IMG/VR virus record: IMGVR_UViG_3300044857_000165
Length of the DNA stretch: 38,421 bases
Strand: one strand, 5' to 3'
Source of the DNA: a virus
The position numbers and the translations under genes were made by a program. The notes below the pieces were generated by a model. That model worked only from the letters and a program-made list of their open reading frames with translations, did not search any database and was not told where the DNA came from. This document shows positions 4,187 to 33,272 of this stretch, in pieces (the first letter of the stretch is position 1; every line of letters begins with the position of its first letter).

Positions 4187-4852
4187 ATGGAAACTTTAGG
4201 AAGCAGATTAAAAAGGTTGCGAGAACAAAGAAATATGACACAAACAGAGCTATCGCAAGAACTAAACATGAAAACATATACTACTATTTCAAAATGGGAA
4301 AGCGACGACAATTTACCAAGAGGAAAAGAATTAAAAGCATTAGCTGAACTGTTTAATGTTTCTTCTGATTACTTGTTAGGCATCGAAAGACAACAAATCG
4401 AACAAAAGGCATCTATCGAATCTATCTACAATCAATTAGATCAACCAAGAAAAGCAAAAGTTTACAATTTCGCGGAATATCAATTAAGAGAACAAAACAA
4501 ACGTCCGAAAATTACAATTGAAATTCGAGGCTACGTTTCAGCTGGAACAGGGGAATGGTTGGAAGATGAAATTTTGGACGAAGTGAGTTATGAAGGTGTG
4601 ATACCTGAACATGATTTTGCAGTTAAGGTAAACGGTGATTCGATGCTGCCTCTTTTTGAAGATGGACAAGTTATCTTTATTAAAGGCACTTCAGACGTGC
4701 GTGACGGTCAAATAATCGTATGCCAGGTAAACAATGAAGCGTTTGTTAAAAAGCTATCAGGAAACAAGTTAGTGAGTTTAAATAAAAATTATGAGGATAT
4801 ATCAATATCTGATACAGATGATTTTAAAATTTATGGCGTAGTCGTATTATAA
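4187..4852 (+). CDS. cI: CI-type repressor: XRE HTH plus LexA/S24 autopeptidase domain
   Basis: N-terminal MTQTELSQELNMKTYTTISKWE HTH. C-terminal VNGDSMLP (Ser) and FVKKL (Lys) S24 dyad. Divergent from cro. Confidence 0.85.
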   Translation: METLGSRLKRLREQRNMTQTELSQELNMKTYTTISKWESDDNLPRGKELKALAELFNVSSDYLLGIERQQIEQKASIESIYNQLDQPRKAKVYNFAEYQLREQNKRPKITIEIRGYVSAGTGEWLEDEILDEVSYEGVIPEHDFAVKVNGDSMLPLFEDGQVIFIKGTSDVRDGQIIVCQVNNEAFVKKLSGNKLVSLNKNYEDISISDTDDFKIYGVVVL

Positions 4853-5684: not shown

Positions 5685-6815
5685 ATGTGGATTGAAGAAT
5701 TACCAAATGGAAAATACAAATATTCAGAACGGTATGTGGACCCTTATACCGAAAAGAATAGAAAGGTTTCGATTACTCTCAACAGCAAGTCAAATCAAGC
5801 AAAAAAACAAGCAATGATTGAATTGCAAGAAAAGATTAATAAAAAAGTAAATGCACCGAAACAAGAAGCAATAACATTCGAAAAAGCTCTAGATTTATTT
5901 AAACCATATTATAAGAAAAAAGTGAAAGCTTCATCTTATATTTCGTTCAAATCCACTGAAAAAACGCTTATAAAAACTATTGGTAAGGATATGCTTATAA
6001 AAAATATTGATTTACTCTTCTTTAGAAAAAAAATCGAAAATTTATACTATGATCAAAAATATTCGTTTAACTATGTGAAAAAGATAAAAGCTTTTACTTT
6101 AATGATCTTATCTTTTGCAAAGGACGAAGGATACACTACTGAGATACCAAACTATAAATTAAGTTTAGTTTTGAGACAGGAAAAAGAACCTGAAAAATAT
6201 CTAGAAAAACACGAATTACGAGCTTTGATTAATCAATTAAATAAAATGAAGCCTAATCGTAGAAAAGCAGATATGATTGAATTTATGGCATTGACCGGGT
6301 TGCGCTATGGTGAGTTGATTGCTCTTAGGGAAGAAGATCTATATGAGGGATATATCAATGTGAATGGAACAATTGATTTTAGGAATGGTTCTTATTCAAC
6401 TGTTGTGAGGACCACTCCAAAAACTAAAGCAGCTATTAGGAATATCGCTTTATCTAACAGGGCAGTCAATATCATTATTAAAGTGCTACAAGAAAATCAA
6501 TTGTACAAACTTACAAAAGAATATACAGATTTAGGATATATTTTTACAAATACTTCTGGACTACCAATAGATTATCGTACATTTGAACCATGCTTAAAAA
6601 ATGCCGCTAAATTTGCGGGTTTGCAAAAACCAGTTACTTCACATTATTTGAGACATACTCATATTTCATTTTTAGCTGAATTAAATATACCGATAAAAGT
6701 AGTAATGGATCGCGTAGGACACACTGATGCATCTACGACGTTACAAGTCTACACTCACGTTACAAGCAAGATGAAGGAAAGTTTGAAGGATAAAATAGAA
6801 ACGATAGACTACTGA
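5685..6815 (+). CDS. int: Tyrosine recombinase / phage integrase
   Basis: C-terminal catalytic motifs LTGLRYGEL, HYLRHTHISFLAE, GHTDASTTLQVYTHV. Confidence 0.9.
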   Translation: MWIEELPNGKYKYSERYVDPYTEKNRKVSITLNSKSNQAKKQAMIELQEKINKKVNAPKQEAITFEKALDLFKPYYKKKVKASSYISFKSTEKTLIKTIGKDMLIKNIDLLFFRKKIENLYYDQKYSFNYVKKIKAFTLMILSFAKDEGYTTEIPNYKLSLVLRQEKEPEKYLEKHELRALINQLNKMKPNRRKADMIEFMALTGLRYGELIALREEDLYEGYINVNGTIDFRNGSYSTVVRTTPKTKAAIRNIALSNRAVNIIIKVLQENQLYKLTKEYTDLGYIFTNTSGLPIDYRTFEPCLKNAAKFAGLQKPVTSHYLRHTHISFLAELNIPIKVVMDRVGHTDASTTLQVYTHVTSKMKESLKDKIETIDY

Positions 6816-6860
6816 CGGTTTGCTCCTTTTGTGCCTCTTTTAGATATTTAGATATTATAA

Positions 6861-6897
6861 AACCGCTAGAGATTCCGTCATCTAGCGGTTTATTTTT
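6861..6897 (+). terminator. Rho-independent terminator after int
   Basis: AACCGCTAGA / TCTAGCGGTT 10-bp stem followed by TATTTTT. Confidence 0.7.
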
Positions 6898-7049
6898 AGG
6901 ATTAATAAAGCTCTAAGTATTGATTTTGCGGAATAACAGTTATTCTCAAATGCTATAAAAAGCCGTTTTAACGGTGTTTTATCAGATCAATTAATGATTG
7001 TTATTTGCTAACATTGGCAAGCAACTGCCCCTTTTTTGCCCCTTATTCG
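6898..7049. other. Probable attP region; core not pinpointed
   Basis: Non-coding and adjacent to int. Contains the 7-1-7 palindrome GAATAACAGTTATTC (6931..6945) and other short repeats. Confidence 0.45.
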
Positions 7050-7077
7050 TACCTTCTCTTTGAGGAGGTATTTTTTT
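7050..7077 (+). terminator. Rho-independent terminator insulating the downstream cassette
   Basis: TACCTTCTC-ttt-GAGGAGGTA stem (one G-U pair) followed by T7. Confidence 0.65.
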
Positions 7078-7137
7078 GACAATATGCAAAATACTTTGTA
7101 GTTTTCTATTGACTTTATACAAAATACTTTGTATAAT
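7076..7137 (+). promoter_or_regulatory. Two tandem promoter units, each with an imperfect palindromic operator in the spacer
   Basis: Unit 1: TTGACA(7076)-17-TAGTTT. Unit 2: TTGACT(7109)-17-TATAAT(7132). (T/G)(G/A)CAAAATACTTTGTA occurs at 7085..7100 and 7118..7133. Confidence 0.7.
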
Positions 7138-7177
7138 AGGTTTATAGATAAGAGATAAACAAAAGGAGGAAACAACA

Positions 7178-7516
7178 ATGCTAGAAATTCTAAAAAATAA
7201 ATTATCTGAAATGGATCTGGACTTTGAAATATCAGAAGACGCTCAGAATTTCACCATCCGCTTAGAAGATAAAGGTTTGCTCCACGTTTCCACAAAAACT
7301 CACAAACTTCAAATGCTTAAACTTTCTGAAGAATTGCAAGGTCAAGGCCTAGCAAGTTTAATGCTCGAAGTTGCTAAAGAAGTTGGCGCAACTGAACTCG
7401 TTGCTGAAAAATGCGGAGAAGGCTTATCTCAAGAAAACCTTGTTAAATTTTACGAAAAACATGGATTCGTTGCATACTTTCAAGACGACAATCTAGCTGC
7501 AATGGAATTAGCATAA
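7178..7516 (+). CDS. Acidic mini-GNAT-like protein (112 aa)
   Basis: AAGGAGG SD. GNAT motif-A-like LQGQGLASLMLEVAKEVG and C-terminal FYEKHGF. Too short for a canonical GNAT. Confidence 0.6.
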   Translation: MLEILKNKLSEMDLDFEISEDAQNFTIRLEDKGLLHVSTKTHKLQMLKLSEELQGQGLASLMLEVAKEVGATELVAEKCGEGLSQENLVKFYEKHGFVAYFQDDNLAAMELA

Positions 7517-7533
7517 AATAGGAGGAAAATAAA

Positions 7534-7980
7534 ATGACAGAAACTTACACTGAAATCATCACGAAACTATTAAAAGGAAAGCTAACAAGTTATAAAATCG
7601 CTAAAGATACCGGTTTGACACCGCAATACATCGATAATTATCGAACCGGAAAAAGCAAGATTGAGAACATGGCTTTGGGAAAAGCCGAATTGCTAGTAGA
7701 CTATGCTAAAAAAGTCGCTGTTGTCAGCGTTGGTAAACAGCAGTGGATTAATATTGTTGGATCTGCTAAAAATATAAATGAAGCAAAAAAACTTTTGAAA
7801 CGTTACGTTTTCGGCTGGTCAAGTAAAGAATCTGCGCTACAAACGTTTAAACATGCTGTTTTAAAGAAAGATCAAATCAGCAGACAAGTTAAAGACGAAA
7901 AAGTTGAATTTGGAGAAAATCCCGACGAAGTTATTTCATGGCTTAAAAATATTACTGTAGACGATCTTGCTGATCGATAG
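7534..7980 (+). CDS. HTH DNA-binding protein (148 aa), probable autoregulator of the cassette; AcrIIA1-N-terminal-domain/Aca-like
   Basis: TAGGAGGA SD. N-terminal KLTSYKIAKDTGLTPQYIDNYRTGKSKIENMAL HTH. Last gene of the cassette. Confidence 0.55.
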   Translation: MTETYTEIITKLLKGKLTSYKIAKDTGLTPQYIDNYRTGKSKIENMALGKAELLVDYAKKVAVVSVGKQQWINIVGSAKNINEAKKLLKRYVFGWSSKESALQTFKHAVLKKDQISRQVKDEKVEFGENPDEVISWLKNITVDDLADR

Positions 7981-7999
7981 GAGCGAATGAAAAAAATAA

Positions 8000-8029
8000 G
8001 CCCCCTACTAAAAAGTAGAGGGCATTTTT
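8000..8029. terminator. Bidirectional terminator at the convergent junction of the cassette and the lysin gene
   Basis: GCCCCCTACT-aaaa-AGTAGAGGGC stem, with an A-run upstream and a T-run downstream. Confidence 0.7.
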
Positions 8030-8049
8030 GGCTAATCTATTCTTTGTAT

Positions 8050-8295
8050 TTACACGCCGACTTTTTTCGCGATTTTTGCTACTGTATCAGATAGCTTCTG
8101 TAAGTCAACAACTGGCTGTTCTAAACGAGACCACCACGGCGCACCTTTTTTCCAGTGGAATTCTGGAATCTCTTTCCCATTGTTTTTCCGATAAACTTCT
8201 TTGATGATGACTAATGCATCAGGGTGTCCAACGTATTCATAAGTTACCCCATTGTAAAAATACCATTTCCCACTATATTCATATAATGCGTACAT
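8050..8295 (-). CDS. Predicted independently translated cell-wall-binding domain (81 aa) from an in-frame internal start
   Basis: AAAGGAG (8304..8310 region) lies 8 nt upstream of the in-frame ATG at 8295 (Met195). Confidence 0.5.
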
Positions 8296-8877
8296 AGTCG
8301 CCACTCCTTTTGTATTTGTAGTTTGTGTAGCCGGTGATTCTGTTTTAATTGGTGTAACAGTACTTCCTACAGCACCACTTTCCACATCTTTTTTAAATTG
8401 TGCTGGTGTAATTCCCCACTTGGCAAAATAAGGATATGGGTCTGTATGACCACCATACACGTTATTTCGTGCTGTCGAATAGTTATGTGTCAAGATACCA
8501 GTATCGCCTGAATCGACAACAACTGGCAATCCAGCTTGATTAGCTAAGTCGCGCAATAACTGGATATATAGTGCGTAATCACGTCTAAATTCTGCTTCTG
8601 TGGCGTGAGATTCGATAAACTCGACTGCTGCATAAGTTTCATAATTATCCGCGTTACCGACGTCCCAAGCGCCACGATTAACGGCGCCAACCTGAATTAC
8701 TCGACCATTACCCACGATGTGGGTATAAAATCCTTCTTCGATATTTTTGCCAGCAAAATAGTCAATCTCGTTTTGCACTGTTGAATTTGGATTTCCAGTT
8801 GAATGTGCATGGATTTGATGATACGGCACTGTTCCGACTTGCGGTAAATCAGTTCGGATATGATTTTCAATATTCAT
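8050..8877 (-). CDS. Endolysin: N-acetylmuramoyl-L-alanine amidase (Amidase_2/PGRP-like) plus a C-terminal cell-wall-binding domain
   Basis: [21 protein letters not shown]...RGAWDVGN...AAVEFIE pattern resembles PlyL/PlyG-type amidases. The C-terminus [11 protein letters not shown]...[16 protein letters not shown]...APWWSRLE resembles enterococcal phage lysin CBDs (from memory). Confidence 0.8.
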
Positions 8878-9089
8878 TTGATTTCACCATTTTGCTTATT
8901 GTAATTAATCGCACTTACTCCTGTTATTGCGCCTAGAAACACGGCTACGGCATTAATCGTCAATACTGTAATGTCTGTATACTCGAAGCCGTAAGCCTTG
9001 CCTAGCACGCCTAAAAGCACGCTTAACGCTGGTAATACAGTAAGCACCACCCATTTAATGATTGTGTAAGTTTTGTTATTTAGTTGCAT
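8874..9089 (-). CDS. Holin (phi-LC3 / Phage_holin_1-like, 71 aa)
   Basis: Two TM segments, [21 protein letters not shown] motif, immediately upstream of the lysin with an overlapping stop/start. Confidence 0.75.
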
Positions 9090-9093
9090 GTTA

Positions 9094-9384
9094 TTACCCT
9101 CTCTCTTTAAATAATGTTTTTAGTTGTTCGTCGTGTACAATCAAGCGATCATTATGATTATCTAATCGTCTGTCATGCTCCTTTAGCTCCTTGTGCAAAG
9201 CAGTTCTATCCGCCTTGCTTGATTCCAAGTCCTTATTTAACAAATCTAAACTATGTGACATCTTAGTCAGATTTTCTGTAATTTTAGTAAAACTTGTTGT
9301 AATCGGCTTAAGTAAATAAGCGATTAGACCAAGTATAGTCATAATCGCCCCCGCCCACGTTGCTATTGTCATCACATCTAACAC
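9094..9384 (-). CDS. Membrane-anchored coiled-coil protein (XhlA-like lysis accessory?)
   Basis: N-terminal TM followed by a coiled coil. First gene of the lysis cassette. The start is GTG 9384 or ATG 9372. Confidence 0.5.
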   Translation of the reverse strand: MLDVMTIATWAGAIMTILGLIAYLLKPITTSFTKITENLTKMSHSLDLLNKDLESSKADRTALHKELKEHDRRLDNHNDRLIVHDEQLKTLFKERG

Positions 9385-9416
9385 ATACCCTCACCCCAAT
9401 AATTTAATAAATATCC

Positions 9417-9442
9417 AAAATAAAAATCCCCGCAACAGCGGG
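9417..9442 (-). terminator. Intrinsic terminator between the tail genes and the lysis cassette
   Basis: On the - strand, CCCGC-tgtt-GCGGG is followed by GATTTTTATTTTGG. Confidence 0.5.
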
Positions 9443-9472
9443 CAAGCGACTATTAGGTATAATCTCCACATG

Positions 9473-9718
9473 CTATACCTCCAATTTATCAAGACGTGCT
9501 TTTAATTCATCTAACTCTGTTTTCATATACTCGATAATTGAATCTTTATCTTCCACCCAAAGCCCTTTTGTCCAATCGTATTTAGGGTATTTAAGATGTT
9601 CGTCTGGTCCTACATAAATGATACCTTCTCCCAAAGGCAATCCCTCAGGCGTTTGAAATTCTGTGTAAAACTTGCCTTCTGCGTTTTTTTCGTCAAGTGG
9701 TAAATATACTGTTTTCAT
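9473..9718 (-). CDS. Hypothetical tail-module protein (81 aa)
   Basis: Last ORF of the tail operon; C-terminal coiled coil. Confidence 0.55.
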   Translation of the reverse strand: MKTVYLPLDEKNAEGKFYTEFQTPEGLPLGEGIIYVGPDEHLKYPKYDWTKGLWVEDKDSIIEYMKTELDELKARLDKLEV

Positions 9719-32731: not shown

Positions 32732-32859
32732 AGTTGCCTTATCCCCCCTGTTTTCTATCGCTGACAATTTCGGAATTAATTTATTTCTTAATGATCTCTG
32801 ATTATCTTTCTAAGTTCAGTTAAATTAGTGATCTCTAAGACATGCTTACACCAATCCCC

Positions 32860-32967
32860 CTATTCCTTGATAAAAGATTCTTTCGCCTCTGTCATTGTTT
32901 CTGCATAGGCAGTACCTCGGGATTCTCGTCCATGCTTATCAATAAACCTAAAGACATATTCGTCCAT
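32860..32967 (-). CDS. Small ORF (35 aa, MDEYVFRFIDKHGRESRGTAYAETMTEAKESFIKE)
   Basis: Not in the ORF track. ATGA overlap, preceded by AGGAGGAAGAG. Confidence 0.4.
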   Translation of the reverse strand: MDEYVFRFIDKHGRESRGTAYAETMTEAKESFIKE

Positions 32968-33206
32968 CACTCTTCCTCCTGTTCCAAACTAAAATCCATC
33001 GGTTCAACTTCTATGTTTTGTTTAATTAATCCTTGGATTTTATCAATCGATACTCCCAATTTTCTAGCAAGAACCTCAACATTCATTGCTAAAAATGTAA
33101 TGTGCATCAGCAAATCTTCATTTAGCTCTTCGGAAATTTCCACCTTAGCGTTTCCTTTATATTGGACCACTCTTGATGCTCCAAGTATTTCAAATTCTTT
33201 ACCCAT
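32967..33206 (-). CDS. Hypothetical protein (79 aa)
   Basis: AGGAGGAAGAG SD before the ATG at 33206. Confidence 0.55.
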   Translation of the reverse strand: MGKEFEILGASRVVQYKGNAKVEISEELNEDLLMHITFLAMNVEVLARKLGVSIDKIQGLIKQNIEVEPMDFSLEQEEE

Positions 33207-33272
33207 CACTCTTCCTCCTGTTCAAATTTTGCAGTCACACCATTTTTAAACCAAATCACTAAACTGTTCATT

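Follow-up and report, generated by a model that had tools for sequence, protein, structure and literature searches.

An acidic mini-GNAT replaces an acrIIA3-family gene in a candidate anti-CRISPR-type operon of a temperate siphovirus of Enterococcus-type lineage

INTRODUCTION

Anti-CRISPR (acr) loci with helix-turn-helix (HTH) autorepressors, and an anti-CRISPR protein built as a Gcn5-related N-acetyltransferase (GNAT), are each already known. In this study, we describe a two-gene cassette on the + strand of the IMG/VR virus record IMGVR_UViG_3300044857_000165, made up of ORF1, which encodes an acidic mini-GNAT, and ORF2, which encodes an HTH protein, and we show that it shares its regulatory DNA with prophages in which an acrIIA3-family gene stands in the place of ORF1. 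The window analyzed is the whole stretch of 38,421 nt, and the positions of the cassette are numbered along it. Neither a GNAT-type inhibitor in a Cas9 lineage nor the present combination of genes is described in the literature that was searched.

AcrVA5, from a Moraxella bovoculi prophage, is a GNAT anti-CRISPR that acetylates Cas12a at K635. It is the sole acetyltransferase named among the enzymatic Acrs in a 2026 review (PMC13131331), its structure is available as PDB 6IUF (PMC11021501), and a validated structural homolog has been reported, both proteins acting on Cas12a (PMC10799925). The closest described systems on the regulatory side are AcrIIA13, AcrIIA14, and AcrIIA15 (AcrIIA13-15) of Staphylococcus, fusion Acr-Aca proteins in which a conserved N-terminal domain (NTD) is joined to divergent C-terminal domains (CTDs) (PMC7104187). 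Crystal structures, electrophoretic mobility shift assays and reporter experiments have demonstrated that the AcrIIA15 NTD dimer binds two inverted repeats, IR1 and IR2, and represses its own promoter, IR1 lying upstream of the -35 hexamer and IR2 between the -35 and the -10 (PMC10901769). In Listeria phage A118 the acr genes lie in the order int, terminator, acrIIA3-acrIIA2-acrIIA1, terminator, and convergent lysis genes. More recently, the CasPR proteins, which combine CapR and AP2 regions, have been described as DNA-binding anti-CRISPRs of Bacillota prophages with the conserved cysteines C33/35/37/56/58 (bioRxiv 10.64898/2026.02.23.707548).

RESULTS

Anatomy of the cassette and exchange of its first gene

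The cassette is made up of the following features.

7049-7077 (+): terminator upstream of the cassette, with a 10-bp stem and a T7 run, insulating it from the integrase/attP side
7068-7133 (+): tandem duplication of a 33-nt unit, copies 7068-7100 and 7101-7133, 82% identical
7083-7100: putative operator IR1 (TGCAAA-ATAC-TTTGTA), upstream of the -35
7109-7137 (+): sigma-A promoter TTGACT-17-TATAAT, 11/12 consensus positions
7115-7136: putative operator IR2 (TTATACAAA-ATAC-TTTGTATAA), with perfect 9-nt arms, filling the spacer and overlapping the -10
7138-7177 (+): leader with the Shine-Dalgarno (SD) sequence AAGGAGG, conserved, and common to operons headed by an acrIIA3-like gene or by a mini-GNAT
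7178-7516 (+): ORF1, 112 aa, acidic mini-GNAT; exchangeable cargo and candidate anti-CRISPR/anti-defense effector
7517-7533 (+): intercistronic ribosome-binding site (RBS) AATAGGAGGAAAATAAA, the same letters in locus L009; 3' junction of the cargo swap
7534-7980 (+): ORF2, 148 aa, N-terminal HTH domain and C-terminal domain
7534-7719 (+): ORF2 NTD, residues 1-62, HTH of AcrIIA13-15 NTD type; predicted autorepressor
7720-7980 (+): ORF2 CTD, residues 63-148, basic; no family recognized
8000-8029 (both strands): terminator downstream of the cassette, common to the convergent endolysin gene at 8050-8877 (-)

The nature of this locus is most clearly seen in comparison with the prophage of Enterococcus dongliensis K4 (L009), to which the window is identical at 151 of 158 nt in the stretch that runs from the terminator through the operator pair and promoter to the end of the leader, at the start codon. 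The intercistronic RBS is identical as well and ORF2 has 85% DNA identity, whereas the first gene is without similarity. In the prophage loci of E. dongliensis/E. devriesei type, the gene before ORF2 encodes a 115-121-aa AcrIIA3-family protein, with scores of 141.7 and 108.5 bits in L002 and L006, respectively, against the NCBIfam equivalog model AcrIIA3_fam (NF033948; cut-off 70). This first-gene protein is 57% identical to gp30 of Listeria phage A118, which is named AcrIIA3 by RefSeq; no relative of it was found in the PDB. Since the regulatory DNA, the RBS and ORF2 are held in common and the first gene is unrelated, ORF1 and acrIIA3 are alternative cargoes on one regulatory chassis; as judged from the alignment, ORF1 replaces the acrIIA3-family gene exactly, from the start codon to the intercistronic RBS.

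No known acr gene is present in the window itself. An AcrIIA3-like gene also shares one operon with a stand-alone 62-aa NTD in the Streptococcus dysgalactiae phage Javan128. Taken with the homologies of ORF2 described below, these data make it very likely that the cassette is an acr or anti-defense locus with ORF2 as its repressor. A preliminary description of the cassette, made from the letters alone, had seen the grammar of acr-aca operons in its promoter, palindrome, small effector and terminal HTH gene, and this is now backed by homology, as sister prophages drive an AcrIIA3-family gene from the same promoter, operator and leader and with the same ORF2. That description had also placed the two-gene + strand unit, its strong SDs, the near-consensus sigma-A promoter, the flanking terminators and the spacer palindrome where we find them, although it had missed the second copy of the palindrome at 7083-7100.

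Promoter and putative operators

Within positions 6000-9500, TTGACT-17-TATAAT is the top promoter match. The promoter region is duplicated in tandem, each 33-nt unit holding a TTGAC(A/T) -35-like hexamer followed by an operator palindrome, and the palindrome is therefore present twice, the second copy lying 5' of the -35. The core TACAAA-N4-TTTGTA, with one mismatch permitted, has two sites only in the 38.4 kb, namely IR1 and IR2; the chance expectation is 0.4, and two or more matches were obtained in 5 of 100 shuffles. The better argument against chance is that six other loci have palindromes at the corresponding places in the promoter. In the alignment of the seven loci, the -35, the -10 and the leader are conserved and the palindromes stand at fixed positions, that of IR1 being conserved in L002, L004, L007, and L009. 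Moreover, the operator varies with the recognition helix: TACAAA-N4-TTTGTA goes with ...PQYIDN..., and GTATAT-N4-ATATAC with ...RMTITN... (L016).

The SD of ORF1 (AAGGAGG, 7163-7169) and that of ORF2 (AGGAGG, 7520-7525) are each followed by the ATG 8 nt further on. On folding, the upstream hairpin (7049-7071, followed by the T-run) has -12.3 kcal/mol with a z-score of -3.3, and this terminator element is also found in L009. The downstream hairpin at 8000-8023 has -14.3 kcal/mol on the + strand and -18.1 kcal/mol on the - strand, and because it folds well on either strand the downstream terminator looks bidirectional.

ORF2 carries an N-terminal domain of AcrIIA13-15 type

Pfam gave only weak HTH matches to ORF2. 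In a phmmer search of the PDB, residues 8-63 of ORF2 matched the AcrIIA15 NTD (E 2e-5), and a profile of the ORF2 family (23 members) aligned with residues 3-60 of AcrIIA15 at E 1e-10 and 45 bits. T18, S19, Y20, K24, Q31, D34, R37, and K42, among others, are near-invariant in the aligned family. By these matches, the ORF2 NTD belongs with the N-terminal domains of AcrIIA13-15 type, and the HTH call of the preliminary description was right. Its proposal that ORF2 is AcrIIA1-like was abandoned, as the ORF2 profile has no match to AcrIIA1 at E <= 10 and hhalign, run with an AcrIIA1 sequence verified against PDB 5y6a, returned a probability of 13.7% over 20 HTH columns. What ORF2 and AcrIIA1 have in common is position and architecture, including an HTH protein of about 148-149 aa as the last gene product; homology between them was undetected.

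The likeness to AcrIIA15 extends from the domain to the promoter, where the IR1/IR2 layout is repeated in the window. In both families one NTD is joined to unrelated CTDs: distant members of the ORF2 family have the same NTD with a different remainder, and P0030-P0034 and the 154-aa protein of L016 have the NTD alone in common. Stand-alone NTDs of 62-64 aa are found in Streptococcus and Staphylococcus phages. There are also differences. The base-contacting residues S25/Q26/K31 of AcrIIA15 align to T29/P30/N35 of ORF2, so that a different operator sequence is expected, and the operator sequence does differ. Moreover, the ORF2 CTD (pI 9.3; whole protein pI 9.4) is basic rather than an acidic DNA mimic, and ORF2 follows a separate cargo gene. 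By analogy with AcrIIA15, ORF2 is predicted to bind DNA and to repress its own promoter. The CTD, for which a profile search of the PDB found no relative, may act as an additional inhibitor like the CTDs of AcrIIA1 and AcrIIA13-15.

Homologs of ORF2 form about 30 clusters. They always lie at the prophage end beside a convergent lysin, in several metagenomic contigs as well as in E. devriesei and E. dongliensis. No relative was confirmed when IMG/VR viral contigs were scanned with the ORF2 alignment.

ORF1 is a mini-GNAT of the AcrVA5 size class

ORF1 is strongly acidic, as had been noted before (pI 4.64, net charge -10), and scores above the Pfam cut-offs for Acetyltransf_10 (28.8 bits; cut-off 23.6) and Acetyltransf_7 (27.7 bits; cut-off 27), each of which matches all nine members of the ORF1 family at E <= 0.01. 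Motif A, [QR]-x-x-G-x-[AG], is likewise kept in 9/9 members with G57 invariant, and reads Q54-G-Q-G57-L-A59 in ORF1; the family also has in common a G-LSQE-L-KFYEKHGF stretch. The call of the fold depends on an AlphaFold2 model built from the 9-sequence alignment (predicted local distance difference test score, pLDDT, 94.8; predicted template-modeling score, pTM, 0.86). This model runs in the order alpha, four beta strands, alpha3, beta5, alpha4, beta6, beta7, and is without the canonical beta1-alpha1-alpha2 arm. All 50 of the top 50 Foldseek matches in the PDB are GNATs (probability 0.92-1.00), in support of the GNAT call of the preliminary description. Among them AcrVA5 (6iuf_B) ranks first in TM-score (0.56/0.65), in root-mean-square deviation (the lowest, 3.4 A, in an alignment of 95 columns that takes in nearly all of AcrVA5) and in identity (24%). 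The Pfam matches and the model together make ORF1 a genuine mini-GNAT in the size range of AcrVA5.

Against the ORF1-family profile, AcrVA5 ranks second among 177,635 PDB sequences (E 1.1e-5, 28.6 bits), and hhalign of the family with AcrVA5 gave 93%. Both are minimal acidic GNATs with motif A (92 aa in AcrVA5, 112 aa in ORF1), both are encoded on a mobile element in an inhibitor locus, and both have an unusual [LI]SQE[DN]L..FY...F stretch after beta5, a resemblance that is only suggestive. They differ in that identity is just 24-34% over 64-95 residues, in that ORF1 has an additional N-terminal helix and strand, and in the host lineage, which for ORF1 is Enterococcus/Aerococcaceae, where type II-A and not V-A is the expected CRISPR type. 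By its sequence scores, ORF1 is not placeable in an AcrVA5-specific clade. The AcrVA5-like layout put forward in the preliminary description is supported as far as structure is concerned, AcrVA5 being the best size-matched structure with the top TM-score, and is not supported by the sequence scores, in which AcrVA5 is no closer than ordinary GNATs. The idea that AcrVA5 acetylates an Enterococcus Cas2 was dropped, as the type II-A Cas2 of the paper concerned is from Treponema denticola.

The ORF1 family is extremely rare: two clusters were found among 5.8 billion proteins, and when 1.84 billion representatives were searched exhaustively with HMMER, ten matches were obtained, mostly of 97-127 aa. 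Identity within the family is 29-42%, except for P0002 at 68-69%. The PADLOC defense models had no match to ORF1, ORF2 or the neighboring cargo genes, and NCBIfam holds no model for ORF1 or ORF2. In a protein of 1990 aa (P0038), five stretches match the ORF1 mini-GNAT profile (E 9e-9).

Operons of the relatives

The relatives of ORF1 and ORF2 recur beside one another, beside lysins and beside proteins resembling known inhibitors. P0002 lies beside a lysin, and downstream of it a 186-aa protein and an AP2+HTH protein are encoded. P0036 (40% identical to ORF1) has directly 3' a 154-aa protein with an ORF2-type NTD (hhalign 97.8%), an AP2+HTH protein coming next; GTATAT-N4-ATATAC palindromes are present in the promoter of this operon, the recognition helix differing accordingly, and the element also carries AbiEii, a single-stranded DNA-binding protein (SSB), a methyltransferase, a resolvase and a PIN protein. 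In L012, P0035 (42% identical) is the first gene of an operon whose last gene encodes a CasPR-like protein.

Such CasPR-like proteins, of 139-151 aa, were found in three loci (L006:835-1269, L007:6456-6875, and L012:955-1410), being encoded 3' of ORF2 homologs in L006 and L007 (139-144 aa) and 3' of an ORF1 homolog in L012. All three have the CapR-like signature C-x-C-x-C-(18 residues)-C-x-C, and the region downstream of it matches PHROGs of AP2-bearing HNH endonucleases, directly in L006 and L007 and through the L006 homolog in L012. The likeness to CasPR is one of architecture, lying in this cysteine spacing and in the AP2-type PHROG region. In contrast to these sister operons, the window has no CasPR-like protein.

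An independent case of a GNAT in the same slot is provided by an Aerococcaceae prophage (L010:3653-3973), where a different mini-GNAT of 106 aa (Acetyltransf_7, 36.9 bits; BLASTP E 0.33 to ORF1) occupies the first-gene slot behind a TACAAA-N4-TTTGTA operator, directly 5' of an ORF2-NTD homolog and beside a lysin.

Two further observations were made in these operons. The P0002 operon (L001) is without an ORF2 homolog, and its promoter (L001:250-300) is a hybrid in which IR1 is the ORF2-type palindrome TATACAAAGTTTATTGTA and IR2 a different palindrome, TATATCGTATACGATATA; together these suggest that operators and regulators are swapped by recombination. Also, a protein of 150-168 aa recurs (L009:4460-4966, L001:1263-1760, and L016:5296-5748), whose N-terminal part matches PHROGs of AP2-bearing HNH endonucleases; it has two HTH motifs and a weak, sub-threshold NCBIfam match to Cbp1, a CRISPR repeat-binding HTH protein (E 1e-5).

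Surroundings of the cassette

Around the cassette lie genes typical of a temperate siphovirus of Enterococcus-type lineage. An anti-repressor and a DnaB-like helicase are encoded elsewhere in the window, together with the following genes.

4187-4852: CI-like repressor
5685-6815: integrase
8050-8877 (-): endolysin

The order integrase, cassette, endolysin agrees in place and orientation with that of the Listeria A118 locus, in which the acr genes lie between the integrase and lysis genes, and an AcrIIA3-family gene is first in the sister loci of the window as it is in A118. In the A118 acr region, gp27 (L011:3784-4383), annotated as a 199-aa acetyltransferase, lies convergent and directly after acrIIA1.

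Just 5' of the cassette terminator, at 7026-7047, there is a direct repeat (TGCCCCTTTTT / TGCCCCTTATT), the motif of which recurs in L002 and L009 at the ends of the prophage. It may adjoin the attP core, because the homology of the window to the L002 and L009 prophages begins near 7000-7020. An ORF of 135 aa on the + strand (32842-33249) lies within the otherwise - strand early region and has no PHROG match; if it is a gene, the cassette is not, as the preliminary description had it, the only + strand unit outside the lysogeny module. In a near-identity DNA search with the cassette and 12 kb of the late region, nothing was found among 50,697 phage records.

DISCUSSION

Computation establishes the structure of the cassette, its homologies, the exchange of its first gene and the recurrence of the neighborhoods, and from these we infer the activities proposed in what follows. 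On balance we think it probable that this is an anti-CRISPR-type operon at the integrase/lysin junction, in which ORF1 most likely acetylates a host immunity protein, the likeliest being a type II-A component. In such a scheme, the strong sigma-A promoter would fire as the genome enters the cell. ORF2 would then build up, dimerize through its N-terminal HTH of AcrIIA13-15 type and bind IR1, upstream of the -35, and IR2, in the spacer and overlapping the -10, thereby lowering expression of the operon to a low level, in the lysogen as well. ORF1 would be the exchangeable cargo, a stripped-down GNAT keeping the acetyl-CoA-binding core, and would act on a host immunity protein as AcrVA5 acts on Cas12a, inactivating it catalytically through acetylation of lysine, with the ORF2 CTD as a possible second, stoichiometric inhibitor. 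The exact substitution of ORF1 for an AcrIIA3-family gene makes a type II-A (Cas9) component the likeliest target. The role of ORF1 as an anti-defense effector is, in our estimate, slightly favored; the narrower claim, of an acetyltransferase with a type II-A component as its target, is a tentative proposal.

Several points weigh against this proposal. The Foldseek E-values of ORF1 are merely about 1e-3 to 3e-4, and an ordinary E. faecalis GNAT, 2ae6, outscores AcrVA5 on the ORF1-family profile (30.7 and 28.6 bits, respectively). The Tyr of the FYEKHGF stretch is Phe in one member of the family. A first AlphaFold2 model, built from 2 sequences (pLDDT 79), had no significant Foldseek match, its list mixing GNATs with RNase-H-like folds, and was replaced by the 9-sequence model. 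In BFVD, uncharacterized GNATs of 94-130 aa that have this truncated fold are common in phages of many hosts, and the fold alone therefore says little on the target; entries of this kind are found, for example, under Pseudomonas MPK6, Bacillus G, Tenacibaculum and uncultured Caudovirales. Moreover, Cas9 reads the protospacer-adjacent motif largely via arginines, so that an AcrVA5-style attack on a lysine of the reader is not an obvious mechanism. Finally, acr islands hold mixed cargo, and guilt by association cannot separate an anti-CRISPR from other anti-defense or moron roles.

ORF1 might acetylate or bind a component of a restriction, abortive infection or nucleotide-signaling defense and merely share an inhibitor island with acr genes, and we give this a minor but real probability. 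Islands of this kind commonly mix inhibitors of different systems (bioRxiv 10.64898/2026.02.23.707548), the P0036 element with its AbiEii, methyltransferase and PIN protein is such a setting, and ORF1 has no features that point to Cas9 specifically. However, ORF1 fills the exact AcrIIA3 slot, and all recognizable neighbors in the related operons (AcrIIA3, the CasPR-like proteins and the AcrIIA15-type NTD) are CRISPR-directed by homology. The junction of lysin and integrase is also a classic site of morons in Bacillota prophages, and the cassette has the promoter and terminators of its own that a lysogenic conversion gene would have; in that case ORF1 would acetylate a host metabolite, an antibiotic, or a cell-wall or translation component, and ORF2 would be merely its regulator. 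Aminoglycoside and polyamine acetyltransferases are indeed among the Foldseek matches. This reading seems unlikely to us, as the beta1-alpha1-alpha2 arm, which forms most small-molecule acceptor sites in full-size GNATs, is absent from the modeled ORF1, the family is restricted to acr-like operons and has extremely few members, and the promoter design is that of tight autorepression as at acr loci and not of constitutive expression in the lysogen.

A further question is whether ORF1 would act as an enzyme. Steric hindrance has been reported as the main way in which AcrVA5 blocks integration by Cas1-Cas2 (PMC11021501), the inhibitor of AcrIIA1 and of AcrIIA13-15 lies in the CTD (PMC7104187, PMC10901769), and ORF1 is strongly acidic like many DNA-mimic Acrs. 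ORF1 could thus be a dead GNAT scaffold that inhibits by stoichiometric binding, or an accessory to the ORF2 CTD as the real inhibitor, and we rate this a little lower still than the moron role. The conservation of the pyrophosphate-binding motif A and of the FY..GF motif at a family identity of 29-42% (69% for P0002) speaks for the enzyme, since conservation across so divergent a family argues for selection on cofactor binding. Least probable, and in our view very improbable, is a toxin-antitoxin pair with ORF1 as a TacT/AtaT-type tRNA-acetylating toxin and ORF2 as its autoregulating DNA-binding antitoxin. The cassette does share with TacAT, AtaRT, and KacAT the pairing of a GNAT with a DNA-binding partner in a bicistron whose autoregulation is predicted, and TacT1 and AtaT appear in the Foldseek list at ranks 4, 7, 40, and 44, a likeness of fold that is at the generic GNAT level. 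GNAT toxins are about 150-175 aa, and one that binds tRNA is expected to be basic, whereas ORF1 has 112 aa and a pI of 4.6. The genes stand in the reverse order, with the partner, an HTH protein and not a ribbon-helix-helix (RHH)/DUF1778 protein, encoded downstream, and PADLOC gave no match. Moreover, the partners reassort, homologs of ORF2 occurring with AcrIIA3 and homologs of ORF1 with unrelated proteins. We rejected the toxin-antitoxin reading for these reasons of size, charge, gene order and a pairing that is not conserved.

Returning to ORF1 as an enzymatic inhibitor of immunity, few enzymatic anti-CRISPRs are known, and one that comes from a Cas9 lineage and acts catalytically would, if true, be biologically new and of use as an off-switch in genome editing. 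The sister prophages with AcrIIA3 in the same slot provide a natural control, the regulator and its operators are defined, and the family is small enough for exhaustive testing. We offer only as a doubtful but attractive suggestion that the ORF1 family is the first acetyltransferase-type anti-CRISPR of the Cas9 (type II-A) lineage, catalytic and sub-stoichiometric, replacing AcrIIA3 in Enterococcus prophages, and that mini-GNATs have been recurrently recruited as enzymatic inhibitors in the inhibitor islands of Bacillota. Recurrent recruitment is conceivable because two unrelated mini-GNATs fill the same slot behind the same operator. The ORF2 family extends the autorepressor domain of AcrIIA13-15 type from Staphylococcus to elements of Enterococcus, Aerococcaceae and Streptococcus, and constitutes a new anchor for guilt-by-association searches. 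Phage mini-GNATs of 94-130 aa may merit a systematic look as enzymatic counter-defense.

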